NCBI GenBank assembly: GCA_009780345.1
Contig: WRAG01000005.1
Span: forward strand, 2,377-66,376
DNA length: 64,000 nt
Source of the DNA: Oscillospiraceae bacterium
Lineage (GTDB): Bacteria > Bacillota > Clostridia > Monoglobales > WRAG01
Reading direction: 5' to 3'
Positions 4,814-41,985 of the stretch are shown in pieces. Each line of letters starts with the position of its first letter. The first letter of the stretch is position 1. Position numbers and translations under genes: made by a program. Below the pieces are notes generated by a model. The model did not search any database. It was given only the letters and a program-made list of their open reading frames with translations, and was not told the origin of the DNA.

Positions 4814-4814
4814 T

Positions 4815-5660: not shown

Positions 5661-5676
5661 CGAATGATGCACCTGC

Positions 5677-5704
5677 AAGGCACTTATGACCACATAAGTG
5701 CCTT
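5677..5704. repeat. Perfect palindrome (12-bp arms, 4-nt centre)
   Basis: AAGGCACTTATG-ACCA-CATAAGTGCCTT, read directly. It lies about 20 bp from the point where recombinase homology breaks off. Confidence 0.8.
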
Positions 5705-5810
5705 GTATAGCTGTTGACAAAAAAATAATTCGTTCGCAAGCACGGCATAACGCTATACAGCGTTATACATTTCTTGTTTGGAATTATTCCCAAGCCCTTG
5801 CCGAAACCAT

Positions 5811-5839
5811 TTGACATTTCCGTTCGTTTAAGTTATACT
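5811..5839 (+). promoter_or_regulatory. Near-consensus promoter in front of the orphan recombinase 5' fragment
   Basis: TTGACA, a 17-nt spacer, then TATACT, 27 nt upstream of the ATG at 5866. Confidence 0.45.
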
Positions 5840-7881: not shown

Positions 7882-7915
7882 AATGTAAACTATTGAATTT
7901 TAGGAGTTGATAGCT

Positions 7916-13693: not shown

Positions 13694-13815
13694 CTCATTT
13701 CTATACCAGATTTGCGAATATGGGGCATAGCCAGCCGGTCGTGTCTTGCTGCCTCGCTCTGTTGTCTGATTTTCCGTCAAGCTTTACGAAAATATAGCCC
13801 TATTCTATCTTTCTA

Positions 13816-20295: not shown

Positions 20296-20324
20296 AATAA
20301 TTCCGCCTTTCAAATTATACTGGT

Positions 20325-21881
20325 TCACATTGCTAATCTCTTTTCGTTTACCATTTCCTCTCTGCACAGCGCATCGGCATAACCAAGCAATCGACCTTGT
20401 CCAACCGATGATAACATTTCAAAAAGTGCGAAGAGATAATTTTTTGTTCCAACCTCAACATTATTTGCTTTTTTCGCTAGAGTTTCAATATTTTCAACTG
20501 AACTTACTTCCGAAGTTGGAAGTTCCACAATTTCAGTCGTGCTAAAAGCAGTATTCTCACTTTCAAGTGTATCATTTTCTTGTGACGTTTCTTCTGTTGC
20601 ATTATTAACAATCAGAAGAGACGCTTCAGCTATATCAGAAGTACTTAAAAACCAATCCGGCTGTAAATTAAAAACTTCTGTGATTTGATTTAAGTAAGAT
20701 TGTGATGGCAGATGCATTCCTTTTTCCCATCGAAATACTGTGTTTCCGGCCACTTTAATTTTAGCTCCGAACTCTCGTTGTAATAGGTTGAGTCTTTTGC
20801 GCAAAGCTTTTATATTTTGAGCAATTAACATAGATGTGTCAGTTGTTTGAGGAAATTCGCCGTCATGCCCTTTATCAATATCAATAAGTTTATCTCCAAA
20901 ACTACCATTTTCTAAATCGATACCGTGCCTTAACCAAAACTTTGACACGTTAAAGAACTCTGCGACTTTGTTCAGGTTAGCTTCCGATGGCATATAATTT
21001 TTTTCCCAACGAGTGGAAATACTTGAAGATACACCAATTTTAGACGCAAACATTCTATGCGAAATTTTACTGCGCTCTCGCAAAAATTTTATTCTTCCGC
21101 CGAAAGTAGAGGTGTCAGTATTTTGAGATGTTTCGTCGTCGCAACCACTCAAGATCCATTTCAAAGACACTCCAAACTTTTCAGCCATTTTCATTGCTTT
21201 TGGTCCCATTGGTTTAGATTTGTCAGCTTCCCAATTCGATACGCTTATTTCTAGCACAGCAAATTCTGCTGCAAATTCAGAAATTGACATTTCATTATTT
21301 GCACGCAAAAATTTTATTCTTCCGCCCATTGTAGAGATATCAATACTTCTGAGAAGTTCATTTTTAGCGGACAAATCAAACATTTCGGTGTCAAGCACTT
21401 CAATAAACCAATCTTGCGGAACACTAAATATTTCAATTATTTTCTTTGCATGAGGTTTCGACGGCTTGCGCTTGCCTTTTTCCCAATGTGACACGGTGCT
21501 TTCTGAGATACCAATTTTAGCCGCGAATTTGCCTTGTGACAGATAATTTTCTTTACGTATATATTTTATTTTCTCGCCAATAGTTTTTGCGGCAACGGAA
21601 TCGTTCGCCGTTGCTACATCACCATGGTGAATAGTGAGTTCGTCTTTGATAGCAGCGTTAAACGGTTTAATTTCAGCTTCAGCATCTTCTAAAAACCAAT
21701 CAGGTTCAACGTTAAATACTTCGGCAATTTTTTTAAATTGATTATCCGAGGGAGTGACTAAGTTATTTTCCCAATGGCACATCAAAGCTTTAGACACGCC
21801 AACTTTAACTGCTAAATTAAGTTGTGACATATTAAAGCTTTCACGTGTTATTTGTATTTTTTCGCCTACTGTGCCGTACAT
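20325..21881 (-). CDS. Transcriptional regulator with five tandem XRE/Cro-C1 HTH domains and an acidic C-terminal tail
   Basis: Five units of about 62 aa each carry an HTH and end in a (D/K)W(F/I)(L/I) motif: GEKIQITRESFNMSQLNLAVKVGVSKALMCHWE..PDWFLE; GEKIKYIRKENYLSQGKFAAKIGISESTVSHWE..QDWFIE; GGRIKFLRANNEMSISEF..SVSNWE..LKWILS; GGRIKFLRERSKISHRMFASKIGVSSSISTRWE..KFWLRH; AQNIKALRKRLNLLQREFGAKIKVAGNTVFRWE..PDWFLS. AAAGGAGG precedes the ATG ATG start. Confidence 0.8.
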   Translation of the reverse strand: MYGTVGEKIQITRESFNMSQLNLAVKVGVSKALMCHWENNLVTPSDNQFKKIAEVFNVEPDWFLEDAEAEIKPFNAAIKDELTIHHGDVATANDSVAAKTIGEKIKYIRKENYLSQGKFAAKIGISESTVSHWEKGKRKPSKPHAKKIIEIFSVPQDWFIEVLDTEMFDLSAKNELLRSIDISTMGGRIKFLRANNEMSISEFAAEFAVLEISVSNWEADKSKPMGPKAMKMAEKFGVSLKWILSGCDDETSQNTDTSTFGGRIKFLRERSKISHRMFASKIGVSSSISTRWEKNYMPSEANLNKVAEFFNVSKFWLRHGIDLENGSFGDKLIDIDKGHDGEFPQTTDTSMLIAQNIKALRKRLNLLQREFGAKIKVAGNTVFRWEKGMHLPSQSYLNQITEVFNLQPDWFLSTSDIAEASLLIVNNATEETSQENDTLESENTAFSTTEIVELPTSEVSSVENIETLAKKANNVEVGTKNYLFALFEMLSSVGQGRLLGYADALCREEMVNEKRLAM

Positions 21882-21920
21882 CATACTGCCTCCTTTAACT
21901 ATCATGAAATAATTCCCATA

Positions 21921-22451: not shown

Positions 22452-23003
22452 TTAGTTTTCTATCGGCATTTCAACGTTACCACGCAACACCGCGCCCTCC
22501 TGCATATTAATACTTTTCGTTATAATATTTCCGTCCACAAAAGCTCCGGATTTTAATGTTACGGTCTTTGAAATCTTCATATCGCCTTTGATTTCGCCGT
22601 TAAATTCTAAAGATTGACTATCAATATTACCGTTAATTATAGACATCTCACTTACTTGGACACCACCAATACAGTTAAGATGTCCGTCTATTGTACCTTT
22701 ATTTACATGTATTGATTTTGCTTGAATATTTCCCTCAACTTTTCCGGTAATGGTAATATTATTTTCGCTTACAACGTTACCTCTGACAAATCCGTCAATC
22801 AACAAATTCGCCTTGGTGGAAATCGAGCCTTCAATAATAGTATCTTTAGGTATACACGCTTCCTCTCTATTGGGGAACCGTTCGAAATCCGGCGCGAGCG
22901 TTTTGCTCGCGTTAACGTTTGATTCTATTTCATCTGACGATGAAGATAAAATTTCTTGCGACTCATATTTTTTCATCTGATGATTGCCCCTAATTTCTTT
23001 CAT
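22452..23003 (-). CDS. Bactofilin-family (polymer-forming cytoskeletal) protein
   Basis: The beta-helical bactofilin pattern is present (IIEGSISTKANLLIDGFVRGNVVSENNITITGKVEGNIQAKSIHVNKGTIDGHL..GNIDSQSLEFNGEIKGDM..VDGNIITKSINMQEGAVLRGNV). GGGGG lies upstream of the ATG at 23003. The longer track ORF has no RBS. Confidence 0.7.
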   Translation of the reverse strand: MKEIRGNHQMKKYESQEILSSSSDEIESNVNASKTLAPDFERFPNREEACIPKDTIIEGSISTKANLLIDGFVRGNVVSENNITITGKVEGNIQAKSIHVNKGTIDGHLNCIGGVQVSEMSIINGNIDSQSLEFNGEIKGDMKISKTVTLKSGAFVDGNIITKSINMQEGAVLRGNVEMPIEN

Positions 23004-23149
23004 CTCATAACCCCCAAAAAACATTTTCGTCTTGGTTTTAAATCGAATCCACGCGCTGTCGCTCATTAAATCGTCAAAATAATTGTGTTCCACCGCCGTC
23101 TTCAAATTTATCAACCCTTCCTTAGTGTTATTAGAGCAAACATCCACTT

Positions 23150-24757
23150 TTATAACGCCAACATTCCGTAGATAATCCTTGCGGCTTGCGCGCGGGTCGC
23201 GTTGTCAAGCGGTCGGAAAGTTCCGTCCTCAAAGCCGTTTATAATCCCCGCCTGTTGCATTACTGAAACCGCGTCAGCCGCCCAAAATGCAATATCGTCA
23301 TTATCAATAAATTCTTGCGGCGCGTTTGTTTGTGGCAAGCTGTCAATTGCTCTTTGTACCATAACCGCCATTTCTTGACGAGTGATATTGTTGCCCGTTC
23401 CAAAAGTTCCATCGTAATGCCCTAAGATAATTCCCGCGTTTACCGCGCTCGCAACCGACGTGAACGCCCAATGCGAAGTTGCTAAATCAGGGAAGCTTGC
23501 TGTTGCGGTTTCATCGTAAATTCCGAGCGCAAGAACCAACATTCTTGCGAATTGTTCACGGGTGACGTTGTAATCGGGCGCAAAATGTGTTGCGCTGATT
23601 CCATTCAAAATTCCGCGTTCAACAAGCGACATGATATAGTCATACGCCCAATGTGACGGCGGAAGGTCAGCAAAGTCTGTGCGCTGTTCTCCGTTCGGTT
23701 CCTGCCATTCACTATCAATCGGAACGCCGTCAATGGTAACGCTTCTTTCGGTTGCGGAAATTGTTACAATAACAAATTGTGATGTTGGCGTTGCTCTTGC
23801 CAAAATTTCTTGATGGTTAAATGAAACATTTCCTAAGTCGGTGAAAAACGTAGTGTCAAACACCCAATTCGCAAGTGCATTCGCTATTGTAGAAACACTC
23901 ATTCGAAATTCAAAGTTGTCTGCATTTGCGTCAACTCGAATTCTCATAACGTTGTCTGTTTCCGCTTCTGCGCGCGCAAACGCGTTTTCAAGTTGTCTGT
24001 CGTTCAGCGTGTAATTTACCGCGCCATTAACAACAGGAGGTCGAATTGTAAGAGTGTATAAATTCGGAACATTTGTTCCTGTTTCACTATCTATTGGCGG
24101 TCGAGTGCCGGGGTTTACATCTTCACCCACTACAGTTATAGCCGGCACATTCGCTTGCAAAACCATAAACTGCGCGTCGCCATAAACATAACTGAACCCA
24201 TCTGGCGAAGTCAAATCGTAAGCGTTATCGCCTTCCACCGCAAACCGTATATCCGCGTTTCCTGCGGCAATTGCAACAAACCGTATTGTTAAAAGAGTTT
24301 CGTACACTATCGCTCGCTCATGGCTGTTGAATAAAAACAGTCTGTAAAACCCATTTTCGTTATCTAAGCGAGGAAACTGCGGATTGCTGAAAATTGCGCC
24401 GTTCCAATATAAGGGGTTCCAGTCGTCGTCAAAAGCATCTTCATCCACCGCTTGTCCGGGGATAATTCCAGCTAAACCGCCGCGCACCTCTGCTAGTGTT
24501 TTCAACCCGCTTGGCAAAATTCTGCCATCAACGTCTGCAACCCTTACCACGTCAGGGTTAAAGTGAATAGGCAAAGTCATAGATACAGCCGAAATATTTC
24601 TAACTGAAATAGTGGCTTCGATTATATCACCGGTAGTTGCGGTTGTTGTGTTAAAAGTTATATTAACTTCCCCGTTTGTTGCAAATACAGGGATTGTTGC
24701 TGCAAGTAATGTTGTCAGCATTGCAATTGTTATTACTATTGATATTATTTTCTTCAT
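23150..24757 (-). CDS. Cell-wall-anchored protein with an N-terminal cohesin-like module and three C-terminal SLH domains (anchoring-scaffoldin-like)
   Basis: TGGAGG is the RBS and a signal peptide is present (KKIISIVITIAMLTTLLAATIPVFA). The cohesin-like pattern is GEVNITFNTTTATTGDIIEATISVRNISAVSMTLPIHFNPDVVRV...LLTIRFVAIAAGNADIRF. The SLH motifs are FADLPPSHWAYDYI..., FPDLATSHWAF... and ...GFEDGTFRPLDNATRAQAARIIYGML. Confidence 0.7.
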   Translation of the reverse strand: MKKIISIVITIAMLTTLLAATIPVFATNGEVNITFNTTTATTGDIIEATISVRNISAVSMTLPIHFNPDVVRVADVDGRILPSGLKTLAEVRGGLAGIIPGQAVDEDAFDDDWNPLYWNGAIFSNPQFPRLDNENGFYRLFLFNSHERAIVYETLLTIRFVAIAAGNADIRFAVEGDNAYDLTSPDGFSYVYGDAQFMVLQANVPAITVVGEDVNPGTRPPIDSETGTNVPNLYTLTIRPPVVNGAVNYTLNDRQLENAFARAEAETDNVMRIRVDANADNFEFRMSVSTIANALANWVFDTTFFTDLGNVSFNHQEILARATPTSQFVIVTISATERSVTIDGVPIDSEWQEPNGEQRTDFADLPPSHWAYDYIMSLVERGILNGISATHFAPDYNVTREQFARMLVLALGIYDETATASFPDLATSHWAFTSVASAVNAGIILGHYDGTFGTGNNITRQEMAVMVQRAIDSLPQTNAPQEFIDNDDIAFWAADAVSVMQQAGIINGFEDGTFRPLDNATRAQAARIIYGMLAL

Positions 24758-24786
24758 TTTAAAGCCTCCATTTTCTAATTTCCATT

Positions 24787-26964
24787 TCAATTCGGCAACC
24801 ATAGTTGCTCGCCAAAGTCAACATCCTCGCCCGGTCCCAACCAACGTTTAAGCATGCTATAAGTTTCAGGATATCTTCGCTCAAATGCGTTTGAAACGGT
24901 TGCTTCCTGCACGTTGTAAAATCCCCAATGTCCACGCGGCAAGTCAGGCCAATCAACAATCATTTCCTCTAAAATTCCGTAATGGTCTAAATAGCGGTCA
25001 AGCACACGATTGATAAGCGTCATTGCCTCAACCCTTGTTATAGATTGGTCCGGACGGAATGTTCCGTCGGGATAACCGACAATCCAACCACGTTGTGCCG
25101 CCGAGGCGATATATCTTTCACCCCAATGTCCTGATACATCATGAAAATCATGCGCCGCATTAGGGTCTAAATTTTCAAACCTCATTGCGATTGCCGCAAA
25201 TTCCGCGCGGGTTATATTGGCTGCGGGATCAAAAGTGCCGTCAGGACGACCTTGTATAGTTCCTGCGTTTTGTTTTGTAGAAATTTGCTGATTCGACCAT
25301 CTATACGCGTCAACATCGGCAAATGTGTTCGAGAATGCGCGGAATCTGTTTCGGGAATCATCTTCCAAAAGTCGGAAAAATATTGTCGCGACTTCCTCAC
25401 GTGTAATCGGATTATCAGGGCGCATTGTACCGTCCTCAAATCCAAAAATAAATCTGAAATGGTCATCTCTTGCAAGTTGAGGACCATCATCATCCGGTAG
25501 TGGTGGTAGTGGCGGTAAAATAATGACTGGTGGAGGACGAATGGGGTCTCGAATAATCGGATCCCGATTATCATTACCGCCTGCGGCCGTAAATGTCCAA
25601 GTTCCCACAAACATAACGTTTGCGCTCGGCATTGTAAAAGTGCCGCCGATAATTGTTACGTTTACCGGAATCGGAGCCCAGCCGTTAAATGTCCAAGTTC
25701 CTCTAACTCCGTTGTGAGTATTTGAAGTTGTCGTTAAATTGCTTGCCACAGTTACGGTAGCGCCCGCCAAAAATTGCGCCGACGCCGGAATTGCAGAATG
25801 GTTCGGCGGCCTGATTCCCGTTACTGTATAATGCACCTCGAAAATAGCCTGTCCCGGATCCGGAGTAAAAGTCCAGGTTCCTGCAAACACAACATCGCTG
25901 TCCGGCATTATAAATTCACCATCTGTAACCATTACATCATTGGTCCCCCAACCGTTAAATGTCCAAGTTCCTGTAATGCCGTTATGTGTGGTTTCGGTAG
26001 TTGTTAAATCATCAGCTACAGTCAACTCATCACCGGGTGATTGCGGCGAGTTCGGCGGAATTGGATATGGCGCAAAAGTCGAAGGCGCAATTCCTGTAAC
26101 CATATAACGCACTTCAATACGACGCCATTGCGCCGTAAGATAAAAATCTTCATCTATATCAGGTATAACATCGCCGGGTTGATGTATAGCTCCGTCGCGG
26201 CTATCTTCCCAACCGTCAAATGTATATCCCGGGTTGCGATTAAATTCATTTTCCGGCACAGTAAAATCTTCACCGTCAGGCACTTTCGTAGGCGGCATTA
26301 ATGTCGGATCTTCATCCGTTCCATTGTCGCCGGGTCTAAAAGTGATTGTATGCTGCCTTTGGCGAATTTCAAAAGGGTGCACACTCCAAATCGGGAATAT
26401 CGGCATAAAAGCATCTACGGTGCCCCAGCTTTCGTTATCAATCAGAACAACTCCTGTAGGAACAGGCGCAGTCGGATTAAACGCCTCAAATCCAAATCCG
26501 GTACTGGCGCTACCTAATATCCATCCCGATGCCACAGCTTCGTATGTAAGTGTGGCAAGTAAAGTCGGCTCAAAATCTAAGGTAATCCCGCCGCCCACTT
26601 CGTGCGGATACGCCAAAAGCATAATGTTTGTAGTTCCCGGAATATATTGCGGATTATCTATATGCTCAAATCCGGGGGCAGCAACAACAGATTCTAATGT
26701 CGCACGAATCGGATCGTCAAGCACAGGCAAAGTGATATTTACAATATTTCTCACATTTTTTATCCAAATTTCAACTATAAAAATTTCGCCTATATAACAA
26801 TAATCCTGCAAATTGCCATCTACACGCGTTACAAAAAATACCGTTGGAGTGTCGTTCTGCATTTCTTCCGAATTATCTGCCGTGGCTAATGGCAAAGTAA
26901 CCCCTGTCAATAGAATGGACATAACAAACAATATTGATAAAAGTTTTAATCTTGTTTTGTGCAT
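24787..26964 (-). CDS. Cell-wall-anchored multidomain protein with a cohesin-like module, a Listeria-Bacteroides repeat, two SHIRT-like repeats, a Pro-rich linker and three SLH domains
   Basis: The N-terminus reads ...YIGEIFIVEIWIKNVRNIVNITLPV. The Listeria-Bacteroides-type repeat is ITFRPGDNGTDE..GYTFDGWED...LTAQWR. The two SHIRT-like repeats have the form V.Y.VTGI.P.......P....GD..TVA..LTT...THNG..GTWTFNGW......MP...V.F.GTWTF. The SLH motifs are FIFGFEDGTMRPDNPITREEVATIFFRLL, FADVDAYRW..GRPDGTFDPAANITRAEFAAIAMRF and FHDVSGHWGERYI..GYPDGTFRPDQSITRVEAMTLINRVL. Confidence 0.7.
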   Translation of the reverse strand: MHKTRLKLLSILFVMSILLTGVTLPLATADNSEEMQNDTPTVFFVTRVDGNLQDYCYIGEIFIVEIWIKNVRNIVNITLPVLDDPIRATLESVVAAPGFEHIDNPQYIPGTTNIMLLAYPHEVGGGITLDFEPTLLATLTYEAVASGWILGSASTGFGFEAFNPTAPVPTGVVLIDNESWGTVDAFMPIFPIWSVHPFEIRQRQHTITFRPGDNGTDEDPTLMPPTKVPDGEDFTVPENEFNRNPGYTFDGWEDSRDGAIHQPGDVIPDIDEDFYLTAQWRRIEVRYMVTGIAPSTFAPYPIPPNSPQSPGDELTVADDLTTTETTHNGITGTWTFNGWGTNDVMVTDGEFIMPDSDVVFAGTWTFTPDPGQAIFEVHYTVTGIRPPNHSAIPASAQFLAGATVTVASNLTTTSNTHNGVRGTWTFNGWAPIPVNVTIIGGTFTMPSANVMFVGTWTFTAAGGNDNRDPIIRDPIRPPPVIILPPLPPLPDDDGPQLARDDHFRFIFGFEDGTMRPDNPITREEVATIFFRLLEDDSRNRFRAFSNTFADVDAYRWSNQQISTKQNAGTIQGRPDGTFDPAANITRAEFAAIAMRFENLDPNAAHDFHDVSGHWGERYIASAAQRGWIVGYPDGTFRPDQSITRVEAMTLINRVLDRYLDHYGILEEMIVDWPDLPRGHWGFYNVQEATVSNAFERRYPETYSMLKRWLGPGEDVDFGEQLWLPN

Positions 26965-26985
26965 TTAGCTTATACCTTCTTTCAA

Positions 26986-28002
26986 CTAATTATAAACTAC
27001 TGCTTTTCTGAGAAAAATACTTGGCACATAAGGCGCCATCGTATTCGCATTCCAAATAAATATTTTTATATATTCAACCCCCAAAGCGGAGGGCTTGTAT
27101 TCAAAGTTAATCTCATCTCTCGTTTGAGTGTATATTACACGGCGGCGCACTGTGCTTTCAAGAAGTCTGCCTTTTTCGTCATAAGCCGCCACAATCACCA
27201 TAACATCCATATCATAATCCTGAATATTTCTAATTGTTGTCAGTATTGTCAGATACTTGTCAAGTTGTAAAATCCCGTCTGCGGGTATTCCGTCATAGTA
27301 AAGATCTATCGTTATATTTTCCAATGTATTAAATGTCGGCATAATACCGTTATATCTGTTGTTTCTAAGGAATGTGTCGCTGTTAATAGGTCCATGATGC
27401 ACAAACCAAAAACTGCCGCGCGCAAATATTGCCCAGTCATACCACTCTTGCGGATTATTTTTGCCATATCCATCACTTCTGCAAGTTAGCCGAATATCCG
27501 GATTCCCTGCGGCAATGGCTACCATATATACCGAATACACAAGTTGTCTATCTGTTAAATTACGAGGTTGATTATTGAAAGTGGTAAACGTCATTCCAAG
27601 TAATCCGGTTCGGTTATTCAAAAATGGATGAGGCCCAACCGGAACATGTACTCCACGCCATAACCCATATGGATTGCCTATTGCGTTGCCTGTTCTAAAA
27701 AAATTAGGCGCTTGATTTCCAAATCCTGTCGGAAGAATATCTCCATCACGATTAGACACTTGCGCTATTTCCGCATTAAAATGCAATGATGGCGAAACCC
27801 ATAATAAATCATCAAAATTTGAAAGGTATACATTCACCCTAAAAACTTCGCCAATATGTGCAGTTGTTATTTCGTTGCCTTCTAAATCTGTGATTACAAT
27901 TTCTATTGTTTCAATGTTGCTTTGCGCAAAAACAGGCAATAAACTAATGATGCTTATCAATATTGATATTGTAATAAAAATATTAAATATTCGTTTTAGC
28001 AT
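26986..28002 (-). CDS. Secreted protein with one cohesin-like module and a C-terminal beta-rich domain
   Basis: GAGGTG lies upstream of the ATG at 28002 and a signal peptide is present. IEIVITDLEGNEITTAHIGEVFRVNVYLSNFDDLLWVSPSLHFNAEIAQV...VYSVYMVAIAAGNPDIRL is paralogous to the N-terminal module of the 550-aa protein. Confidence 0.6.
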   Translation of the reverse strand: MLKRIFNIFITISILISIISLLPVFAQSNIETIEIVITDLEGNEITTAHIGEVFRVNVYLSNFDDLLWVSPSLHFNAEIAQVSNRDGDILPTGFGNQAPNFFRTGNAIGNPYGLWRGVHVPVGPHPFLNNRTGLLGMTFTTFNNQPRNLTDRQLVYSVYMVAIAAGNPDIRLTCRSDGYGKNNPQEWYDWAIFARGSFWFVHHGPINSDTFLRNNRYNGIMPTFNTLENITIDLYYDGIPADGILQLDKYLTILTTIRNIQDYDMDVMVIVAAYDEKGRLLESTVRRRVIYTQTRDEINFEYKPSALGVEYIKIFIWNANTMAPYVPSIFLRKAVVYN

Positions 28003-28087
28003 CCTTTTGCTTTCACCTCGTTTAATATTATTCAAGCAATATATTGGGGCGAGCGAACTCGCCCCAATATATTAAAGTTAAGTACGA

Positions 28088-30457
28088 TTAGTCAATTTCG
28101 ATTTCAATTGTTTCCATACCTAATATACTTGCTCTAACTGCCGCAAGGTCAGCGCCGTCGATACCATTAACTTCATTGATATCCATAACTGCTGTGCCGC
28201 CAACTCCTGCCAAACCTACAGCACCTCTAATTGCTTGGTAATCTGTAATAAGAGTTGCATTCGCTCCGGCAAACGCTCCCGGGAACAACCAGAATACGTC
28301 GGTAGTCGGTTGAAAGTAATTACCTGATGAAAGCGTAACTTCTCCATCAGCATCAGCGGCTACAATAAGTCTCACTTGAAGATCACGATATGCCTCATCA
28401 CGAGTTCCGCCGTCTCTTCTTGCCATACGGATGTAGAATGTTGTATCTACATCAATTTCAGGAAGTGAAAGTTCGAAATTACCGTCGTTATCAGTATAAA
28501 CTGCCGCTACCGTTGCAATCGGAGTTCTTGCATCAAACGCTGCTGCGTTCGCATAAAGTGTAACTCTGATATCTGCGTCAACGTCAGCTCTTACGCCGGC
28601 GCCGCCTGCTACTGTACGCAATTTGTGCGCCAAACGAATTGTTCCAACTACTGTAACATTCAGAGGGAAAGTAATTTCTTCATCTGTGATTCTTATCAAA
28701 ATTTCGTCATACGGACGATATCCGTCTTGGTTTGGCCACAGATCAGTTGTGCCCCAAACAAATTGAGTCGGGTTATCATTAACCGATGTCGCTCTTACCA
28801 AAATGTCGCCTTCCCAATCAGCGTCAACCATTGAAAATACTCCTGTGTTAGGATCGATTACCGCGATATTTCCAGGTACAGGGTCGCCGTTAGGCAATCT
28901 TATGCTCCAAACAACCTCTTGGTCTACCGGTCTTGAAAGAATTTCAGGGTTTCTTCCCGGAGGGCAATCCCAAAGTACAACATGAGCGAAAGTTACATCT
29001 TCGTCTCTGTCAACCGGAATTGTCGGTGTAGAACCTGTGATTTCAACGATTCTATACGGATCCCAAACTTCTTCAGTAGTGATGATGATTTCATCCCACG
29101 GACGATCAGGATTTGTTAATCTGTCAGCACCGAAGTTATTGTTGTACTCAGCATACACACGTACAAGAACTGAACCTTCAAATCCTTCCGGAAGAACTAA
29201 CTGACCTTGTGCATTGAAATGCGGAGAAGCTGTAGCTGTAGAACCATCTCCCGGTGTGTAGTTCACAACTATCCACTCGTAGTGATTGTCAGGAATCGGC
29301 GCACAATCATCATAGTTCACAAACGTTACTTCATAAGTGAAATCAATATATGTGTTTCCTGTTGTGTTCATAGTAACCGGTGTTCCACCAGTCGGAGTCA
29401 AAATAGTGATTTCCGCAATATCTACAAACTCAGTAGGAACTTGAACCAATCCTGCTACCGAGAAACGCTCTCTGCCGCCAAACGCGTCAGGCGCACCCGC
29501 CGCAAAAGCGAATTCTATCAAATCAGATGTGTCCCAACCTGTTGCCGTTGCATGGTATACAGTTGGCACTACCGGACTTAAAACAACTCTCCAAAAAGCT
29601 GTCGGATTTGCTGTTGTTCCGCCTATGCTTGCAATATCGGCACCCGCTTCAGCTACAGCCGCCCATAAATCAACGCGACCACCGACTATACCTGAACCGG
29701 GAAGCTGAACGAATGCTGCCGGCCCCATCCACTCAAAGCGAACAATTTCAACATAATCAAGGTCAAACTCAAGTCCAACATTTAAGTTGTGAATATCAGC
29801 CAAATCATGCGCTGACACGATTAGGGAGAATTCTTCGCCTACCAATACATTTGCAGGCGTATCCGCCGCCGGTCTGATGAATACATGACCGTCGCCGCCG
29901 GGACCGGGGCCCGGCTCATCATCTTCAACCGTTACAGTTGCATTAGATGTAGAACCCGGCATGCCCGGAAGAACCATTGTGCCTGGATTCATCGGCATCC
30001 ACCAATCACCTAAAAATCCATCAAGGTGTGCATAAGTAATATTTAAATTAATATCTTGGCTGGCATCTTCCACTCTCAAAACCATAGTTCCGATCATTCC
30101 GCCAATTCCACCTTCATAAATACCTGCTACTGAACCTCCAACACGAACTCCATTAAGTCCTGCCGGAGTTGACGCACCTATTCCAACGTGCGCAAAAGCC
30201 GGGGCACCAAAACTTGCACTTACAAACGACAATGCGCCTGCCGGCCAATTAAGGTCGAACTGATAAGCAGAAAGCACTCCTCCATCTGCAAAGTTAAAAC
30301 TGAATTCAACAGTGAACTCGTCTCCAACTTCAAAGTCAGAACCAATTACATTTACAACCAACTCAACGCGACCATCTGTCGCAAACGCAGGAACTGCAAA
30401 CATTCCTAAAACCATTGCTATTGCCAATATCATTGACAATACTTTGCTTAACTTCAT
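28088..30457 (-). CDS. Secreted adaptor-like protein with two cohesin-like modules, Ig-like domains, a CarboxypepD_reg-like domain and a dockerin-like C-terminus
   Basis: AAGGAG is the RBS and a signal peptide is present (KVLSMILAIAMVLGMFAVPAFA). The cohesin-like segments are GRVELVVNVIGSDFEVGDEFTVEFSFNF..LSAYQFDLNWP and VFIRPAADTPANVLVGEEFSLIVSAHDLADIHNLNVGLEFDLDYVEI. The last ~190 aa are collinear with the C-terminus of the 2183-aa protein and end in MDINEVNGIDGADLAAVRASI. Confidence 0.7.
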   Translation of the reverse strand: MKLSKVLSMILAIAMVLGMFAVPAFATDGRVELVVNVIGSDFEVGDEFTVEFSFNFADGGVLSAYQFDLNWPAGALSFVSASFGAPAFAHVGIGASTPAGLNGVRVGGSVAGIYEGGIGGMIGTMVLRVEDASQDINLNITYAHLDGFLGDWWMPMNPGTMVLPGMPGSTSNATVTVEDDEPGPGPGGDGHVFIRPAADTPANVLVGEEFSLIVSAHDLADIHNLNVGLEFDLDYVEIVRFEWMGPAAFVQLPGSGIVGGRVDLWAAVAEAGADIASIGGTTANPTAFWRVVLSPVVPTVYHATATGWDTSDLIEFAFAAGAPDAFGGRERFSVAGLVQVPTEFVDIAEITILTPTGGTPVTMNTTGNTYIDFTYEVTFVNYDDCAPIPDNHYEWIVVNYTPGDGSTATASPHFNAQGQLVLPEGFEGSVLVRVYAEYNNNFGADRLTNPDRPWDEIIITTEEVWDPYRIVEITGSTPTIPVDRDEDVTFAHVVLWDCPPGRNPEILSRPVDQEVVWSIRLPNGDPVPGNIAVIDPNTGVFSMVDADWEGDILVRATSVNDNPTQFVWGTTDLWPNQDGYRPYDEILIRITDEEITFPLNVTVVGTIRLAHKLRTVAGGAGVRADVDADIRVTLYANAAAFDARTPIATVAAVYTDNDGNFELSLPEIDVDTTFYIRMARRDGGTRDEAYRDLQVRLIVAADADGEVTLSSGNYFQPTTDVFWLFPGAFAGANATLITDYQAIRGAVGLAGVGGTAVMDINEVNGIDGADLAAVRASILGMETIEIEID

Positions 30458-30501
30458 ATCCTTTTCTCCTTTTTAATATGTAATTTTTAATTATGTTACT
30501 G

Positions 30502-33321
30502 TTATAAAACGCTATCGTTCGCTATATTCAATATCGGAAGTAGGTTCCTCGGATGTCCCGTGTTTACATATTGGAAAATAACACTCGGAAGCGCTACATT
30601 CGATATGTTTGCTACAAACGGTCCAACCGCAAATACTGCCGCTGAAACTCTACCAATTGGCTGTATGCCTGCAACCGACAACGCGCCTGTTTGTAATGCA
30701 AGCGCCTGAGACGGCGCTGCAAACCCCGGCAATGCATTACCGCCCATTGGATTTCCGTATATTACTACCGTATTCGCAGTAACTTCTCCGCCGATTGGCG
30801 CAAAATAGAAATCAGTAACAGCCATAGGTACATCCGAATTGTTGCGCAATACTGCAAACACCCAATTCGTCTCATTCGAACGCTCCGACGAGAAGAATAT
30901 ATAAACGCCCGCAAGATTGCTTCTTAACGCAAACTCTGTTGTCAAGTTCGGGAACGCTTCTCGCGATACTAAAACAGTTCCCAAAACGCCGATGTTTCCG
31001 ATTCCGTCTTGACGATAGCGGAACTGACCTTGTATCGGCTCTGTCGGTCCGTCTGCGCCTACTGTAACAGTCGCAGTGCCAACTACTCCACTACCATCTG
31101 CCGCAGTCGCTGTAATTGTAACAGTTCCTGCCGCAACGCCTGTAACAACACCTGTTTCAGCGTTTACCGTTGCAATCGCCGCATCGCTTGACGTCCAAAC
31201 AACTGCTCGATTTCGAGCATTTTCCGGCAATACTGTCGCTGTTAACGTACGAGTTGCGTCAATTTCAACCGCGCCCGCATTTCCAACAGCAATCGATGCC
31301 ACACGAATCGCATGAACCACGATAATCCACTCCGGATATTCGCAATCACACGGGTCGTCGCATACGCAAGTGTCGCAAACTATACATCTCACGCACCAAG
31401 TATAACCGTCCGGCAACGGAAGAAGTCCTTCAGGCAAGTCGCCTTCCGGCCATGTCCAGTCGCCCGGCGGAACAATCACGATACAATCGCAATCGTAATC
31501 ACAACCGCAATCGCCTTCATCGCCTTGTCCCCACGGATAACCCGGAATATTGATAACCGTTTCTTCCGACGTCGTAACAACCAACGAACCGCTCGCAGCA
31601 GTCGTCACATGCGTCGCTTCGTTAATCGCAGCGAATCGTGCGCGAACCACATACGTCGTTTCAGCAGTCAAACCGCTGAAAATACGCGATGTTACCCAAT
31701 CGCTAATCGGCGTAACGCCGTCAGCAGCATATAATCTGAACTCTGTTCTCCAACCTGCTTCCGCAGTAATCGCATTCACCGCGAACGATGTCGTTCTAAG
31801 CGAACCCGCAGTCATAACAGGCGCAGCCGGCGCATTTGTCGTCAACAACGGCGGAATTTCTGACGTTCTCACGTTCAAAGTCGCTTCAGGGCTCATTGCA
31901 TGCGTTGCCGCGTTAATCGGCGCGAATCGTGCGCGAACAACATACGCAGTATCCGCAGTCAAGCCTGTAAAAGCAGTTCCCACAGCCCAATCGCGAATCA
32001 CAGTTGAGCCGTCTGCCGCAAACAACGCATATTGCGTCGTCCAACCGCCTGGCGCAGTAATCGCGTTTACGCTGAACGAAGTTTGCGCCAACGTGCTCGG
32101 CGCAACCGCCAAACCTGTCGGAGCTTCCGTCGTTTCAAGCGGCGGTAAACGATATCCGCCCGCATCCAAATTCACGTAAATGCGGCGATACGCATGATCC
32201 CATCCGCCCAAAGTCGACGGCATAAATCCTGTCGCAACCAAGTGATAACCCGACCCAACTTGGTCGCCTGTGCGCGTTACAACAACTTCGTCGCCGTCAA
32301 GCGCAACAGCCCAATCTGGTTGTGCCGAAACCATGCCTGTTTCAACCCATCTTGTTTCGCCGCCGAAAGTCATTGCTTGCGGCAATCTTACCGTGTCGTT
32401 CGCGATCATACCTGTCCACGGCACTTCGCGCTCGATAACAATCGCGTCGCCTGTCGGTTCAGCTGTCTCCATCCAACCTACAGTAAAGAAAGCGTCAAAC
32501 GTCATCGGATTTCCTGTTGAATTATTAATTACAAACGTATGGTCATACGTTCCAACACGCAATCCTTGACGCGGTCTGATTGTAAACTCACGAGCTTGGT
32601 TGTGCGGCAACGGCGTTCCCGTCCAATACGGAGGCAATACGATTTCCCACGCCGGATGTGGCGGCAACGGTGACAAAGTCACAGGTGCGCCTGTTGTGTT
32701 TCTTACACTAACCGTCGCAGACTGACCGATTACGTAGTCCGGTGTACGCCATCCGAATGTAATCGCGTTACTCCTTGCACCCGCCCACGTCAAGGTCGAG
32801 GTTCGGCGAGACTGATTTGTGTTCCCCACGTTCGAGCGCGATAAAACGTACATGTGCCCGGTTGTCCCCCCGCTTTGCCTTACGATCCACCCTTGTCGAG
32901 TATGAGGGACTTGTGAAAACAAATTTATCGGGTGTGGGATACCCCACCCGGTGTCCCCAATCTCAGGAAAGGTGGCCGCATCCCCCCAGCCTGTGTTAGC
33001 GCCGACATTCGACCAACCATTGATAGATCCTCCCGGGGCTAGTGGGGGACTCTTCCTGTGTCTAGCGACGAAAATCCGATCCCCTCCTAACCAGGTGCCA
33101 CCCATACCGAGAATGTGGTAGCCATTGCCCGCGGGAACCACGTCATTGCCTATTTGTCCCGACCGGCTTAGCCTAATTAGGCTCACCGGCTCACGTCGTG
33201 TGACCGTCACGGCAAGACCCGGGGCGTTTGCTTCTGCCGGCGTCGGCGCGGCGATTAATGTCACCGTGCTAAAAACTACTGCTAGCGCTATCATAAATGA
33301 CAGCATTTTTTTAATAACCAT
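30502..33321 (-). CDS. Large secreted multidomain protein with an N-terminal domain of atypical codon usage, Ig-like domains, two tandem FN3-like repeats, a Cys/Asp-rich segment, a Big_2 domain and an unknown C-terminal domain
   Basis: A signal peptide is present (MLSFMIALAVVFSTVTLIAAPTPAEA). The ~95-aa tandem repeats are ..TSFSVNAITAPGGWTTQYALFAADGS..FTGLTADTAYVVRARFAPINAATH and ..TSFAVNAITAEAGWRTEFRLYAADGV..FSGLTAETTYVVRARFAAINEATH. The Big_2 pattern is LTATVLPENARNRAVVWTSSDAAIATVNAETGVVTGVAAGTVTITATAADGSG. Confidence 0.7.
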   Translation of the reverse strand: MVIKKMLSFMIALAVVFSTVTLIAAPTPAEANAPGLAVTVTRREPVSLIRLSRSGQIGNDVVPAGNGYHILGMGGTWLGGDRIFVARHRKSPPLAPGGSINGWSNVGANTGWGDAATFPEIGDTGWGIPHPINLFSQVPHTRQGWIVRQSGGTTGHMYVLSRSNVGNTNQSRRTSTLTWAGARSNAITFGWRTPDYVIGQSATVSVRNTTGAPVTLSPLPPHPAWEIVLPPYWTGTPLPHNQAREFTIRPRQGLRVGTYDHTFVINNSTGNPMTFDAFFTVGWMETAEPTGDAIVIEREVPWTGMIANDTVRLPQAMTFGGETRWVETGMVSAQPDWAVALDGDEVVVTRTGDQVGSGYHLVATGFMPSTLGGWDHAYRRIYVNLDAGGYRLPPLETTEAPTGLAVAPSTLAQTSFSVNAITAPGGWTTQYALFAADGSTVIRDWAVGTAFTGLTADTAYVVRARFAPINAATHAMSPEATLNVRTSEIPPLLTTNAPAAPVMTAGSLRTTSFAVNAITAEAGWRTEFRLYAADGVTPISDWVTSRIFSGLTAETTYVVRARFAAINEATHVTTAASGSLVVTTSEETVINIPGYPWGQGDEGDCGCDYDCDCIVIVPPGDWTWPEGDLPEGLLPLPDGYTWCVRCIVCDTCVCDDPCDCEYPEWIIVVHAIRVASIAVGNAGAVEIDATRTLTATVLPENARNRAVVWTSSDAAIATVNAETGVVTGVAAGTVTITATAADGSGVVGTATVTVGADGPTEPIQGQFRYRQDGIGNIGVLGTVLVSREAFPNLTTEFALRSNLAGVYIFFSSERSNETNWVFAVLRNNSDVPMAVTDFYFAPIGGEVTANTVVIYGNPMGGNALPGFAAPSQALALQTGALSVAGIQPIGRVSAAVFAVGPFVANISNVALPSVIFQYVNTGHPRNLLPILNIANDSVL

Positions 33322-33527: not shown

Positions 33528-33558
33528 TTTCACAAAATTCGCAATTTTGCGAAAAGTA
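33528..33558. repeat. Left arm of the inverted repeat flanking the recombinase cassette
   Basis: AAATTCGCAATTTTGCGAAAAGTA (33535-33558) is the exact reverse complement of 34946-34969. With the extension the match is 31/34. The core is TTCGCAA-TT-TTGCGAA. Confidence 0.8.
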
Positions 33559-33643: not shown

Positions 33644-34750
33644 CTATGCCCGTTTTAAGCTCCGCATTGCTTCTTGTTTTTGCTCCATAAGCGGATGAAC
33701 ATATCTATCAAGCGTTAACTTTACCGTGGCGTGTCCTAAAATTTCGCTTAGTATCTTAACATCAATGCCGCATTCGACACATCTTGTCGCGAAGGTGTGC
33801 CGCAGATTATGAAAGTTGACATCACGCACGTTTGCCCGCCTTAATGCGGACTTAAAACGGTATTGCAACGTGCGATTATCCAAATAGCTGTTGTTTTCGC
33901 AAAGCACATACCCGTTTGATCGTCTTATGCGTCTTAGCAAATCTGATATTGCTTGCGGCATTGGAACTTGTCTTGACGAGTTTGTGCTTTTAGGCTTGTC
34001 CATGATCATCATTGTTTTATTTCCTGTTTGTTCAAATGTGGTAATACGCTGTATTGTGTGATTTATATTGATAAGATTTCTGTCGAAGTCGATATCTTCC
34101 CATCGAAGAGCGCAAACCTCGCCGATACGAAGTCCGGCGTAAAGTGAAAGCATAATTGCGGTGTGCGTATTCTCGTCAAATTCTCGCGATTTGCGTTCGA
34201 GCCGCTTTTGTTCGTCGCGGCTGAGAACTTCAACCTTTTCATATCTGACCGAAGGCGTAATAACATCGTCGCACGGATTCGACGGAATTTCTTTAAACCG
34301 CCGCGCCGCTTTCATGCAAGCCGACAAAACGCGAAATATATTTTGGATGGTTGCGGGCGAAAGCTCGGCGCGGCTTAAATCGGTGACGAAATCTTGAATC
34401 TCGAAAGACGTTATTTCTATCAATTTTATATGACTTAATCGTGGAAGAATATGTCGTTTCATGTGTCCGTGATAGCTTGAAAACGTAGATGGTTTTACGT
34501 TCGGCTTTGAGAGTTTGTAGAGCCAATGTTGCGCCCAAACGTTAAACGTATGTCCGGCAAAAACGCCGATATGACAATTTTGTTTAGCCGTTGTCGCCTT
34601 TAAAGCAATCAATGATTGTTTGACATTGCTATACTTCGATCCATATATATATTTGTAGATTGAACGTCCGTCGTCATGTTTACCGACTACGCAACGCCCC
34701 TCCCAACGGCCGTCCTTTCTTTTATAGATGTTTTCTCCTCGTCGTGCCAC
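33644..34750 (-). CDS. Tyrosine-type site-specific recombinase/integrase with an Arm (AP2-like) N-terminal DNA-binding domain
   Basis: The N-terminus is ..NIYKRKDGRWEGRCVVGKHDDGRSIYKYIYG. A SAM-like core-binding region is present. The C-terminal catalytic region reads ..LYAGLRIGEVCALRWEDID...HNLRHTFATRCVECGIDVKILSEILGHATVKLTLDRYVH. AAAGGAG lies upstream of the GTG start. Confidence 0.85.
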   Translation of the reverse strand: MARRGENIYKRKDGRWEGRCVVGKHDDGRSIYKYIYGSKYSNVKQSLIALKATTAKQNCHIGVFAGHTFNVWAQHWLYKLSKPNVKPSTFSSYHGHMKRHILPRLSHIKLIEITSFEIQDFVTDLSRAELSPATIQNIFRVLSACMKAARRFKEIPSNPCDDVITPSVRYEKVEVLSRDEQKRLERKSREFDENTHTAIMLSLYAGLRIGEVCALRWEDIDFDRNLININHTIQRITTFEQTGNKTMMIMDKPKSTNSSRQVPMPQAISDLLRRIRRSNGYVLCENNSYLDNRTLQYRFKSALRRANVRDVNFHNLRHTFATRCVECGIDVKILSEILGHATVKLTLDRYVHPLMEQKQEAMRSLKRA

Positions 34751-34883: not shown

Positions 34884-34912
34884 TTGACATTGTGAATAAA
34901 ACGTGTTATACT
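34884..34912 (+). promoter_or_regulatory. Strong sigma-A promoter (P2) inside the cassette, firing outward through the right inverted repeat
   Basis: TTGACA, a 17-nt spacer, then TATACT preceded by TGt (extended -10). Confidence 0.5.
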
Positions 34913-34945: not shown

Positions 34946-34976
34946 TACTTTTCGCAAAATTGCGAATTTCACGAAA
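34946..34976. repeat. Right arm of the inverted repeat flanking the recombinase cassette
   Basis: TACTTTTCGCAAAATTGCGAATTT (34946-34969) is the reverse complement of 33535-33558. The central dinucleotide is AA here and TT on the left, so the copies are truly inverted. Confidence 0.8.
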
Positions 34977-35008: not shown

Positions 35009-35050
35009 AAAAGGTTTTTTGGAGACTTCTTCAAAAAGCCTTTTATTTTT
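35009..35050 (+). terminator. AT-rich hairpin plus T-run about 130 nt downstream of P2
   Basis: aaaaggtttttt-N12-aaaaagcctttt followed by attttt. Confidence 0.35.
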
Positions 35051-35171: not shown

Positions 35172-35218
35172 ATAGGCATAAAATATAATGTAGTTATCAT
35201 AACAAGGAGGATGTGGCT

Positions 35219-37925: not shown

Positions 37926-38273
37926 TGGTGGAGATGACGGGAGTTGAACCCGTGTCCGAAAATACATTCCCTATTGGCGCTACGAGCGTAGTTTATTGTT
38001 TAAATTCCCCTCAATATCACACAATAAACAAAGCAATATATCAGGTAGCCTCTGGTTCATGGGAAGATCGAGACACTTCTTCCTCACGTTCACCGCTAAA
38101 TTTGACGCCCACCCTCATCCCGCGGTTCGGATAAGTTAGGACGGCTACCTAATTAGGCAGCGTAAGCTAAATTTTTGTTAGCGTTTAATTTAAGTTTGGT
38201 CGCAGATTTAGGTGTTGCCCGACACCGCTCGCTCCCCTAAGTTCAATATTCCCGTCGAAACCATTTCATCCCC
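37926..38273 (-). ncRNA. ssrA: tmRNA (SsrA)
   Basis: The minus strand starts GGGGATGAAATGGTTTCGACGGG and ends GGACACGGGTTCAACTCCCGTCATCTCCACCA, a tRNA-Ala-like acceptor/T-arm with an encoded CCA. The internal tag frame is ...GCT AAC AAA AAT TTA GCT TAC GCT GCC TAA (..ANKNLAYAA-stop). smpB lies 570 bp upstream on the same strand. Confidence 0.9.
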
Positions 38274-38660: not shown

Positions 38661-38843
38661 CTACCCCTTATCAATCATCGGTTTGCCATCGCTGTCGAGC
38701 AGCGGCGTCAATCCGCCGCCATAACCTGCTTGACTAAACAAATAATGTATGCCTGTATGTTTATCGCGAAGAATCATCGTCCCAATCGCCATACCATGAG
38801 ATTCCTTTGTCACTATTTCAAACCTTTTGTCTTTTTTACTCAC
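38661..38843 (-). CDS. Small conserved protein (DUF6440-like)
   Basis: [55 protein letters not shown]. The GTG start overlaps the smpB stop. The family assignment is from memory only. Confidence 0.5.
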
Positions 38844-39304
38844 CTAATCCGCTCCTTCATTACCCGCTCCATCTTTCGTTTGGCATCTCTTTCCGCCGTC
38901 GTATGCCGTTTGTCGTAGTTTTTCTTTCCTCTACACAGCCCAATCTCCAATTTCACCTTTGAACCAAGAAAATAAACTTCCAACGGAATAAGCGAATAGC
39001 CCTCCTGCTGCGTCAACCCAATCAGCTTGTTAATCTCCCGCCGATGAAGCAGCAACTTCCGCGTCCGAAGCGGATCTTTGTTAAAAATATTCCCCTTTTC
39101 GTAAGGGCTGATATGCATACCAATCAGCATTGCCTCGCCGGTTTTGCAAGAAATATAACTATCCTTTAAGTTCACCTTTTTATCGCGAATAGACTTCACT
39201 TCGGTTCCCGCAAGCGCGATTCCCGCCTCATATTTGTCCTCGACAAAATAATCGTGATACGCTTTTCGGTTGGTGGCAATTATTCGTTTTTGATTTTGTT
39301 CCAT
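38840..39304 (-). CDS. smpB: SsrA-binding protein SmpB
   Basis: [32 protein letters not shown]....[33 protein letters not shown]...[31 protein letters not shown]. Confidence 0.9.
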
Positions 39305-41936: not shown

Positions 41937-41985
41937 TTAAATTTCCTCCTATTATTTTAAATTTAATTTTTTATAATCAACAATA

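Follow-up and report, generated by a model that had tools for sequence, protein, structure and literature searches.

Background

Cohesin-dockerin pairing is almost always discussed for polysaccharide-degrading enzymes. In Clostridium thermocellum, the type II tier of cellulosome anchoring joins CipA, which ends in an immunoglobulin (Ig)-like X module followed by a dockerin (an X-dockerin, or X-Doc, dyad), to the N-terminal type II cohesins of the SLH anchors SdbA, Orf2p and OlpB (PDB 2b59, 3kcp, 5g5d, 5k39 and 5m0y). In Acetivibrio cellulolyticus, ScaA, ScaB and ScaC (PDB 3l8q, 1qzn and 4u3s) comprise an SLH anchor, an adaptor with both cohesin and dockerin, and a dockerin-bearing cargo. Non-cellulosomal cohesins and dockerins are already known, and so are dockerin proteins without carbohydrate-active (CAZy) modules: in a rumen metagenome survey only 24.3 % of 649 dockerin-bearing proteins contained CAZy modules, and the authors proposed a wider role for cohesins and dockerins (PMC6487960). 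Here we analyzed a stretch of 64,000 nucleotides from an Oscillospiraceae bacterium (contig WRAG01000005.1 of assembly GCA_009780345.1; the whole stretch is called the window below). A run of co-directional genes on its minus strand (10982-33321) probably forms a cell-surface display cassette in which the anchoring half of a cellulosome is reused, with no enzymes encoded nearby.

This cassette has the parts and the logic of the type II anchoring tier. Each gene is named by a letter and the length of its open reading frame (ORF) in amino acids (Table 1). As in C. thermocellum, SLH anchors (D725 and E550) carry N-terminal type II-like cohesins, the C-terminus of the candidate partners (the Ig-rich protein B789 and the giant GLUG protein H2183) consists of an Ig-like X module and a dockerin, and the best sequence and fold matches include C. 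thermocellum structures. Unlike in that species, there is no nearby CBM3, type I cohesin array or enzyme, the X-Doc dyads sit on a GLUG giant and an Ig-rich protein, the first calcium loop of the dockerin is degenerate, the modules fall below Pfam thresholds, and the genes form one compact cassette with a swappable cargo. The A. cellulolyticus system shares the order of anchor, adaptor and cargo, and among solved structures the type II cohesins of its ScaB match the E550 family best in sequence. However, weak support exists for at most one cohesin in B789, the adaptor of the window, and the cargo is non-enzymatic. The modules in the rumen survey (PMC6487960) are scattered, whereas in the window the set of anchor, adaptor and cargo is found in one conserved, apparently mobile and switch-controlled cassette. 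In a literature search, no paper was found that joins cohesin, dockerin and GLUG, and the full package (a conserved SLH cassette free of carbohydrate-active enzymes, variable adhesin-like X-Doc cargo, internal cohesin-like modules in the majority of the cargo proteins, bactofilin and multi-HTH genes, and a recombinase switch upstream) was not found described.

Results and discussion

Cohesins of the wall anchors and of C349

Three SLH stretches apiece were found by Pfam in D725 (E-value 4.4e-26) and E550 (E-value 1.8e-35), as predicted for both proteins in an initial annotation of the window that was made by eye from the sequence, and the SLH region of E550 aligned with the SLH domains of Bacillus anthracis Sap (E-value 3e-13). 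SLH domains bind non-covalently to a cell-wall polymer. The same annotation had called cohesin-like modules in E550, D725, C349 and B789. Pfam itself calls none of them above the cut-off: the Cohesin model (PF00963) gave a partial, sub-threshold match in E550 alone (19.7 bits for the whole protein and 22.4 bits for the module alone; cut-off 24.1). Precomputed Pfam Cohesin matches are present in three of the 13 full-length metagenome orthologs of E550, which are 37-47 % identical to it by best local alignment (one is labelled 'MAG: ... [Clostridiales bacterium]'). When single sequences were searched against the PDB, E550 approached the ScaB cohesins at an E-value of about 0.1 and B789 had no match.

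The calls for E550, C349 and D725 were upheld when profiles were used. The N-terminus of C349 shares 29 % identity with the E550 module (E-value 1.7e-13), and a profile of 15 modules (A3, consisting of E550, its 13 orthologs and C349) gave 17 PDB matches at E-values of 1 or lower, 16 of which are cohesins. The A. cellulolyticus ScaB type II cohesin dyad was the best match (E-value 7.7e-12), followed by single modules (about 1.5e-6) and then by C. thermocellum type II cohesins. The AlphaFold2 model of the E550 module, built on the A3 alignment, had a predicted local distance difference test score (pLDDT) of 85.6 and a predicted TM-score (pTM) of 0.83. In a Foldseek search with this model, all of the 50 best listed PDB matches were cohesins, with type II ranked first (5m0y_A, E-value 6e-8; 4fl4_K, TM-score 0.63 normalised by the query and 0.71 by the target), and the target-normalised TM-scores against single-cohesin chains were 0.6-0.71. 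The cohesin fold was modelled for the E550 module, and C349 and D725 were assigned by sequence or profile.

For D725 the assignment came only with a profile of its N-terminus and the orthologs gathered from syntenic loci (A6). In single-sequence hhalign comparisons with the E550 profile, no signal was obtained for the D725 N-terminus or for either of the two N-terminal modules of B789. The A6 profile matched the E550/C349 profile with a probability of 98.7 % (E-value 2.2e-16, 153 columns), and its weak PDB matches (E-values about 0.15) were ScaB type II cohesins aligned over nearly the full length. On these profiles, and on the predicted fold in the case of E550, we conclude that E550, C349 and D725 bear genuine, divergent type II-like cohesins. 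Cohesin hidden Markov models (HMMs) run over the window ORFs matched B789, C349, D725 and E550 and no others. A scan of a genome collection with the E550 alignment was dominated by SLH-only matches, and only four loci (L009, L011, L044 and L062) reach into the cohesin part. In L062, which belongs to Bacilliculturomica massiliensis, a cohesin-like module is also present in a protein encoded next to the related SLH-cohesin gene.

The shared X-dockerin dyad

The C-terminal blocks of B789 and H2183 are 64 % identical over 206 aa (E-value 3.6e-59; 68 % in a pairwise alignment). A dockerin-like end shared by the two proteins had been noted before. The likeness stood and was extended to homology with X-Doc dyads, while the extent of the shared part did not stand: the conserved unit is about 200 aa long and consists of an X-like Ig module and a dockerin, and a shared dockerin of about 70 aa alone was rejected. 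When the tail HMM was run on all six-frame ORFs of the window, only B789 and H2183 were found.

An exhaustive HMMER search of 1.84 billion representative proteins gave 13 non-self relatives of the tail at E-values of 0.001 or lower. The module is C-terminal in 12 of the 13, and the remaining one (P0029) matches through short internal repeats only. A word-indexed search with a 197-aa tail fragment returned nothing and missed B789 itself, a search with full-length B789 returned only itself, and a metagenome scan with the tail alignment returned only the contig of locus L007. Dockerin_1 (PF00404) gave no Pfam match in the window tails at E-values up to 10. Sub-threshold Dockerin_1 matches occur in four of 14 tails, a match of 18.9 bits, also sub-threshold, lies across the tail of the relative P0018, and the tail of a 921-aa protein in locus L001 exceeds the cut-off (24.0 versus 22.9 bits).

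Against the PDB, the six best matches of the tail profile (A4) were type II X-Doc chains. A profile of 11 X-plus-tail modules (A11) matched six chains at E-values of 10 or lower, and all six are X-Doc chains (5k39_B, 3.8e-4; 2b59_B of CipA, 9.7e-4; 5g5d_B, 3kcp_A, 4u3s_B and 4wi0_B), with alignments that cover the X module and the dockerin alike. The C-terminal half of the AlphaFold2 model of B789 is moderately confident, with helices predicted at residues 737-746 and 768-775, and the two best Foldseek matches of the model were the CipA X-Doc chains 2b59_B (E-value 3e-5, TM-score 0.65) and 5g5d_B (TM-score 0.67), over about 185 columns. Judged by these profile and model matches, the tails of B789 and H2183 are homologous to type II X-dockerin dyads. 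We hold the narrow statement that these modules are homologues of cohesins and X-dockerins to be very probable.

An F-hand consists of a calcium loop of 12 residues (ligands at positions 1, 3, 5, 9 and 12) followed by a helix. In loop 1 (AFAGANATLITD in B789 and AFGDANAIGIFD in H2183) D12 alone is kept, and in loop 2 (DINEVNGIDGAD and DINERDGIDGAD) D1, N3, D9 and D12 are kept, with V or R at position 5. The initial annotation had proposed that a tail without F-hand geometry would speak against a dockerin; this partly applies, as loop 1 has lost four of the five ligand positions, and loop 2 largely keeps them. Across the tail family, loop 2 is nearly invariant and loop 1 is variably degenerate, being near-canonical only in P0018 (DYDGNGTIASAD). 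This asymmetry suggests a single binding mode, by analogy with type II dockerins.

The N-terminal modules of B789

B789 had been described as carrying two cohesin-like modules, and the evidence for the two is not alike. The family of module 2 occurs inside almost all of the relatives that bear the same C-terminal tail. Four of the seven PDB matches of its profile (A5) are cohesins, the best being ScaC of Ruminococcus flavefaciens (E-value 0.0037), and A5 aligned with the E550 profile in hhalign at a probability of 80 % (E-value 1.4e-5) over the first 40 columns only. An iterative local search that started from the module of a relative gathered C349, E550 and B789 module 2, in a small database that inflates the E-values. 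Module 2 is thus weakly tied to cohesins and is probably derived from one. For module 1, no Pfam or PDB match was found, phmmer returned only the protein itself, and a four-sequence alignment of N-termini was poor. Its sole possible relative is the N-terminus of the adaptor in locus L005, and a two-sequence profile had no PDB cohesin match and a hhalign probability of 7 %; the call of module 1 as a cohesin was thus not supported. The full-length AlphaFold2 model of B789 (13-row alignment) had a mean pLDDT of 55.7, with values below 50 at residues 57-345. Multi-Ig and cadherin-like chains were among the Foldseek matches of the Ig-like region that follows the two modules.

Related loci

In six further metagenomic loci (L001/L002, identical in two records, and L003 to L007), two SLH-cohesin genes adjoin an X-Doc-tailed protein (Table 1). 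The closest is L005, in which a bactofilin 59 % identical to F231 occupies the same place at the end of the cassette. Multi-HTH regulators also stand at the cassette end there, as two genes in L005 and as one five-domain gene in the window. C349-like cohesins are fused to SLH domains in L003 and L006 and are free in the window. Across the loci the tail modules are just 27-36 % identical, while the head of the cargo changes. The co-occurrence of tail and cohesin anchors repeats in spite of this divergence and is the strongest argument available for a joint function of the two module types.

The same observations bear on the view that the folds were kept and the pairing was lost. D725 and E550 would then be wall or S-layer proteins of the ordinary SLH type, headed by an Ig-like domain, and the 200 conserved residues at the C-terminus of B789 and H2183 would form an independent wall-association or export-related domain. 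Such a loss would fit with modules that are all under Pfam thresholds, with the degenerate loop 1 and with a dockerin in A939 that has seemingly decayed completely (see below), which indicates that decay of this module type occurs in the lineage; moreover, the pairing is read from homology and linkage rather than from interaction evidence. Nevertheless, we consider this view quite unlikely, as the synteny of tailed proteins with two cohesin anchors is tight and repeated at 27-36 % tail identity, and C349-like cohesins have repeatedly been fused to SLH domains. In addition, loop 2 and the helices are strongly conserved (DINE.xGIDGGDL is almost invariant), which points to purifying selection on the binding half of the dockerin.

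Nearly all of the X-Doc-tailed relatives, H2183 excepted, have a single cohesin-like module in their interior, some hundreds of residues ahead of the tail. Such an arrangement, which B789 shares, might allow a head-to-tail polymer, in which the internal module binds the X-Doc dyad of the next molecule and the base of the fibre is held by the SLH cohesins. This is very unlikely in our estimate: H2183 bears an X-Doc dyad and has no cohesin-like module, and the internal module is tied only weakly to cohesins.

Cargo proteins and the absence of carbohydrate-active enzyme domains from the window

The GLUG repeats reported earlier for H2183 were recovered by Pfam (Glug, PF07581) in six stretches (E-value 2.1e-8; 34.5 bits, cut-off 20.5), a match that arises when the N-terminal third of the protein is scanned alone and is absent from the whole-protein scan. 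No cohesin-like module was found in H2183 by the cohesin HMMs. The C-terminal module of A939 (residues ~765-939) is homologous (E-value 5e-8) to a region of the 1395-aa protein of L004, whose end is a bona fide dockerin by Pfam (31 bits). In the dockerin part of A939 every calcium-binding residue is replaced (YGNPMGGNALPGF... versus YGDVNNSGVANAAD...), and judging from this alignment the C-terminus is perhaps a dockerin in decay; alternatively, it may be an atypical dockerin through which A939 would be cargo for B789. J435, which has no tail, resembles the N-terminal beta-helix head of the X-Doc cargo P0019 of locus L007 (30 % over 155 aa) and may be a detached or alternative cargo head.

No Pfam family of glycoside hydrolases (GH), carbohydrate-binding modules (CBM), polysaccharide lyases (PL) or carbohydrate esterases (CE) was found in the scanned ORFs of at least 150 aa across the 64-kb window, which is part of a contig of at least 165 kb. 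The only borderline case was a Beta_helix match in J435 (E-value 1.1e-5), below the cut-off. The earlier statement that no glycoside hydrolase or CBM is encoded was therefore confirmed within the window. With respect to the hallmarks of a cellulosome, an SLH-anchored type II cohesin scaffoldin is present (D725 and E550), and no dockerin-bearing enzyme or CBM-bearing scaffoldin was found in the window.

The locus could be a conventional though divergent cellulosome or amylosome anchor locus, with the enzymes encoded elsewhere and the GLUG protein as one of many dockerin components. SLH domains with a type II cohesin, and a protein with cohesin and X-Doc, are indeed the known architecture of anchoring scaffoldins. 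The cassette of L004 is headed by a protein with a Pectate_lyase_5 annotation and a Dockerin_1 match, a glucuronate isomerase gene is found in the window, and our view is limited to 64 kb of the contig. We regard this explanation as unlikely, since neither the window nor the cassette cargo of the six related loci (leucine-rich repeat (LRR), beta-helix, DUF6273 and Big_2 proteins) showed any GH, CBM, CE or PL family. Furthermore, no CBM3-like module is present in B789, and a tail family as tiny as 13 non-self representatives in 1.84 billion argues against a large enzyme repertoire on this dockerin.

A putative promoter switch upstream of the cassette

Upstream of A939, two inverted-repeat arms enclose a tyrosine recombinase gene and a predicted promoter (Table 1). 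Each arm can be read as a lox-like 10-7-10 site (TTTCGCAAAA-TTGCGAA-TTTCACGAAA), and the site is conserved with L006. The promoter faces outward through the distal arm, away from the operon and into a hairpin terminator. The recombinase of L006 is 37 % identical to that of the window and is flanked by 28-nt inverted repeats (93 %) of similar sequence. Its promoter (TTGACA-17-TAGTAT, with TG extension) is conserved with that of the window and is directed toward the operon, so that the orientation of the segment relative to the operon is opposite in the two loci. In L001, a perfect 25-nt inverted repeat surrounds 128 bp with a TG-extended promoter of 12/12 matches; this segment lies between the recombinase and the operon, and the promoter is now directed away from the operon.

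In Salmonella, the gene for Hin, a serine recombinase, is located within the invertible Hin/H segment; classical invertons have a neighbouring tyrosine recombinase. The locus resembles these systems in the inverted repeats around a recombinase gene and in the outward consensus promoter next to a surface-protein operon, and the 128-bp segment of L001 with its promoter likewise lies beside a recombinase. It differs from Hin in that the recombinase is of the tyrosine type and in that inversion within one strain was not seen: no direct evidence of it was found in two assemblies or in a scan for the flipped junction. What suggests phase variation is the position, upstream of the cassette, of a recombinase segment with inverted repeats at both ends and an outward promoter, together with its opposite orientation in L006. 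As a well-motivated inference from the sequence, the segment is probably invertible, which would make cassette expression phase-variable, and its present orientation in the window is apparently OFF.

A more far-reaching possibility is a mobile, phase-variable adhesin cassette, in which a chassis shared across genomes (type II-like cohesins on two SLH anchors, one free cohesin, the bactofilin and the multi-HTH regulators) would be combined with swapped X-Doc cargo and turned on and off by promoter inversion, and the X-Doc proteins would perhaps be daisy-chained into fibres. We consider this extended version doubtful. If it were true, it would be the first described cohesin-dockerin system for adhesion, not catalysis, under phase variation. 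The recombinase segment, the X module and the conservation of the cassette with variable cargo were not mentioned in the initial annotation.

Proposed function

Surface display through a reused anchoring half of the cellulosome remains the reading that we favour, with some confidence. By homology, and on the model of CipA X-Doc on SdbA, Orf2p and OlpB in C. thermocellum, D725 and E550, anchored by SLH domains, would use their cohesins to bind the X-Doc dyads of B789 and H2183. Docking would hold the adhesin-like H2183 and the Ig-rich stalk B789 at the cell surface; the divergent cohesin-like module of B789 might also give this protein the role of an adaptor, and C349 might serve as an extra cohesin. 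A role in adhesion or recognition rather than in polysaccharide breakdown is likely because the cargo is non-catalytic (a GLUG beta-helix in the window; LRR, beta-helix and DUF6273 proteins in the related loci). More speculatively, an invertible promoter would control the expression of the cassette.

Several points weigh against this reading. The cohesin and dockerin modules of the window are all under Pfam thresholds, and loop 1 of both dockerins lacks four of the five ligand positions, so that calcium-dependent folding or binding could differ from the canonical case. The cohesin calls in B789 hang on the 40-column profile match and the PDB match at an E-value of 0.0037, and the N-terminal 345 residues of its model, with pLDDT values below 50, give no fold for either module. 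The hierarchy of anchor, adaptor and cargo is deduced from homology and gene linkage, and other parts of the genome could encode enzymes whose dockerins are compatible. As for the switch, the two assemblies that cover it in the window are identical and have it in the same orientation, and the exact-match scan of a metagenome collection for the flipped junction gave no match.

The cassette would offer a testable case for adhesion by cohesin-dockerin pairing in gut-type Clostridia. Because the modules are under Pfam thresholds, standard metagenome annotation will miss such systems. If the segment really inverts, cohesin-dockerin display would be tied to phase variation. Divergent pairs of cohesin and X-Doc could also provide new orthogonal parts for protein-scaffold engineering.

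Gene order and genomic surroundings

Six co-directional genes at 22452-33321, the last of them encoding a bactofilin, had been reported before. Both statements were borne out: the genes lie on the minus strand, with gaps of 44, 85, 21, 29 and 44 nt from A939 to F231 when independently called starts are used, and F231 has a Pfam Bactofilin domain (E-value 5.2e-24). The shorter products of C349, E550, F231, G526 and H2183 in Table 1 come from independent gene calls on the source contig. When the translations were inspected, a signal-peptide-like start (a basic stretch, a hydrophobic stretch and A-x-A) was seen in all ten proteins but F231 and G526. The bactofilin is presumably cytoplasmic, because a signal peptide is not evident in its sequence. 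The placement of a cytoplasmic, polymer-forming bactofilin within a surface-display operon is puzzling. I476 combines its SLH domains with a C-terminal half that has no assignment.

Table 1 Features of the cassette, its upstream segment, its surroundings and the related loci (window positions unless a locus is named)
Feature	Position	Strand	Description
A939	30502-33321	-	939-aa ORF, first operon gene; secreted; fn3-like repeats, Cys-rich stretch, Big_2, C-terminal module (30505-31029)
B789	28088-30457	-	789-aa ORF
B789 module 1	29918-30379	-	Residues ~27-180; cohesin-like sequence pattern alone
B789 module 2	29390-29902	-	Residues ~186-356; divergent cohesin-like module
B789 Ig-like repeat region	28673-29389	-	Residues ~357-595; AlphaFold2 pLDDT 70-88, beta-rich
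B789 X module and dockerin	28091-28672	-	Residues ~596-789; type II-like dyad
C349	26986-28035	-	349-aa ORF; called gene 26986-28002 (ATG at 28002, 338 aa); single cohesin ~27307-27930, C-terminal domain without assignment, no SLH, no dockerin
D725	24787-26964	-	725-aa ORF, wall anchor; N-terminal cohesin ~26347-26877, Flg_new/SHIRT repeats, three SLH ~24859-25476
E550	23150-24802	-	550-aa ORF, wall anchor; called gene 23150-24757 (535 aa); N-terminal cohesin ~24131-24688, conserved middle domain, three SLH ~23153-23686
F231	22452-23147	-	Bactofilin, 231-aa ORF; called gene 22452-23105 (217 aa)
G526	20325-21905	-	Regulator; called gene 20325-21881 (518 aa); five tandem HTH_3 domains (Pfam)
H2183	13816-20367	-	Giant GLUG protein; called gene 13816-20295 (2159 aa); GLUG N-terminal region within 17968-20190, CarboxypepD_reg-like domains, X-Doc 13819-14427
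I476	12350-13780	-	SLH wall protein (Pfam SLH, E-value 5.4e-27), directly downstream of H2183
J435	10982-12289	-	Beta-helix protein, 435 aa
Proximal inverted-repeat arm	33528-33558		31 nt; 207 nt upstream of the first operon gene
Distal inverted-repeat arm	34946-34976		31 nt; 90 % complementary to the proximal arm
Tyrosine recombinase	33644-34750	-	368 aa; Phage_integrase (E-value 2.7e-28) and Phage_int_SAM_3 (Pfam); inside the segment flanked by inverted repeats
Predicted promoter	34884-34912	+	TTGACA-17-TATACT, TG extension, 11/12 matches; 34 nt from the distal arm
Hairpin terminator	35009-35044		16 bp; reached by the outward promoter
LuxR/MalT-like gene	35213-37762
tmRNA	37926-38273
smpB	38840-39304
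Serine recombinase	4606-5817
L001/L002			Recombinase, 921-aa LRR-like protein (tail passes Dockerin_1), small cohesin, two SLH cohesin proteins
L001 inverted-repeat segment	L001 2895-3072		See text
L003			1204-aa LRR protein with internal cohesin-like module and tail (P0025), C349-like cohesin fused to SLH, D725-like, E550-like
L004			1395-aa Pectate_lyase_5-annotated protein with Dockerin_1 (31 bits; L004 202-4389), 887-aa adaptor (P0024), two SLH cohesin proteins
L005			DUF6273 protein, 795-aa tailed adaptor, 321-aa cohesin, D725-like SLH, E550-like SLH, bactofilin, two multi-HTH genes (bactofilin and multi-HTH genes at L005 11685-14464)
L006			Recombinase, 1282-aa LRR protein with tail, SLH protein with C349-like and D725-like cohesins, E550-like
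L006 recombinase segment	L006 1194-2668		See text
L007			Small cohesin, two SLH cohesin proteins, 1157-aa beta-helix protein with tail (P0019; L007 11705-15178)
Internal-module carriers	L001 3190-5955; L006 3068-6916		Also P0019-P0021, P0024-P0028 and P0030

The window also encodes SecA, RF1/RF2, SpoIIE, a germination protease, MetK and SmpB in addition to tmRNA, and this gene content indicates a spore-forming member of the Bacillota. The same proteins were found in four assemblies (ENA ERZ27257297, with k141_2476930 of 165 kb as the source contig; Logan SRR5215140 and SRR10512952; and JGI 3300010369). The cassette is situated beside the tmRNA gene and between recombinase genes, as is often the case for genomic islands; a direct repeat of the tmRNA 3' end, as an island boundary, was searched for and not found.

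Surface proteins are also plentiful outside the cassette. Other secreted-looking proteins are encoded at 2819-4813, 7096-10135 and 41172-42810: one with Flg_new and FIVAR, one with RCC1 repeats and Cu_amine_oxidN1, and three Cu_amine_oxidN1 proteins. Two release-factor genes with PCRF and RF-1 domains lie close together (46041-47132 and 47573-48580); the start of the second ORF falls within the PCRF domain, perhaps as a result of the frameshift that is usual in prfB.

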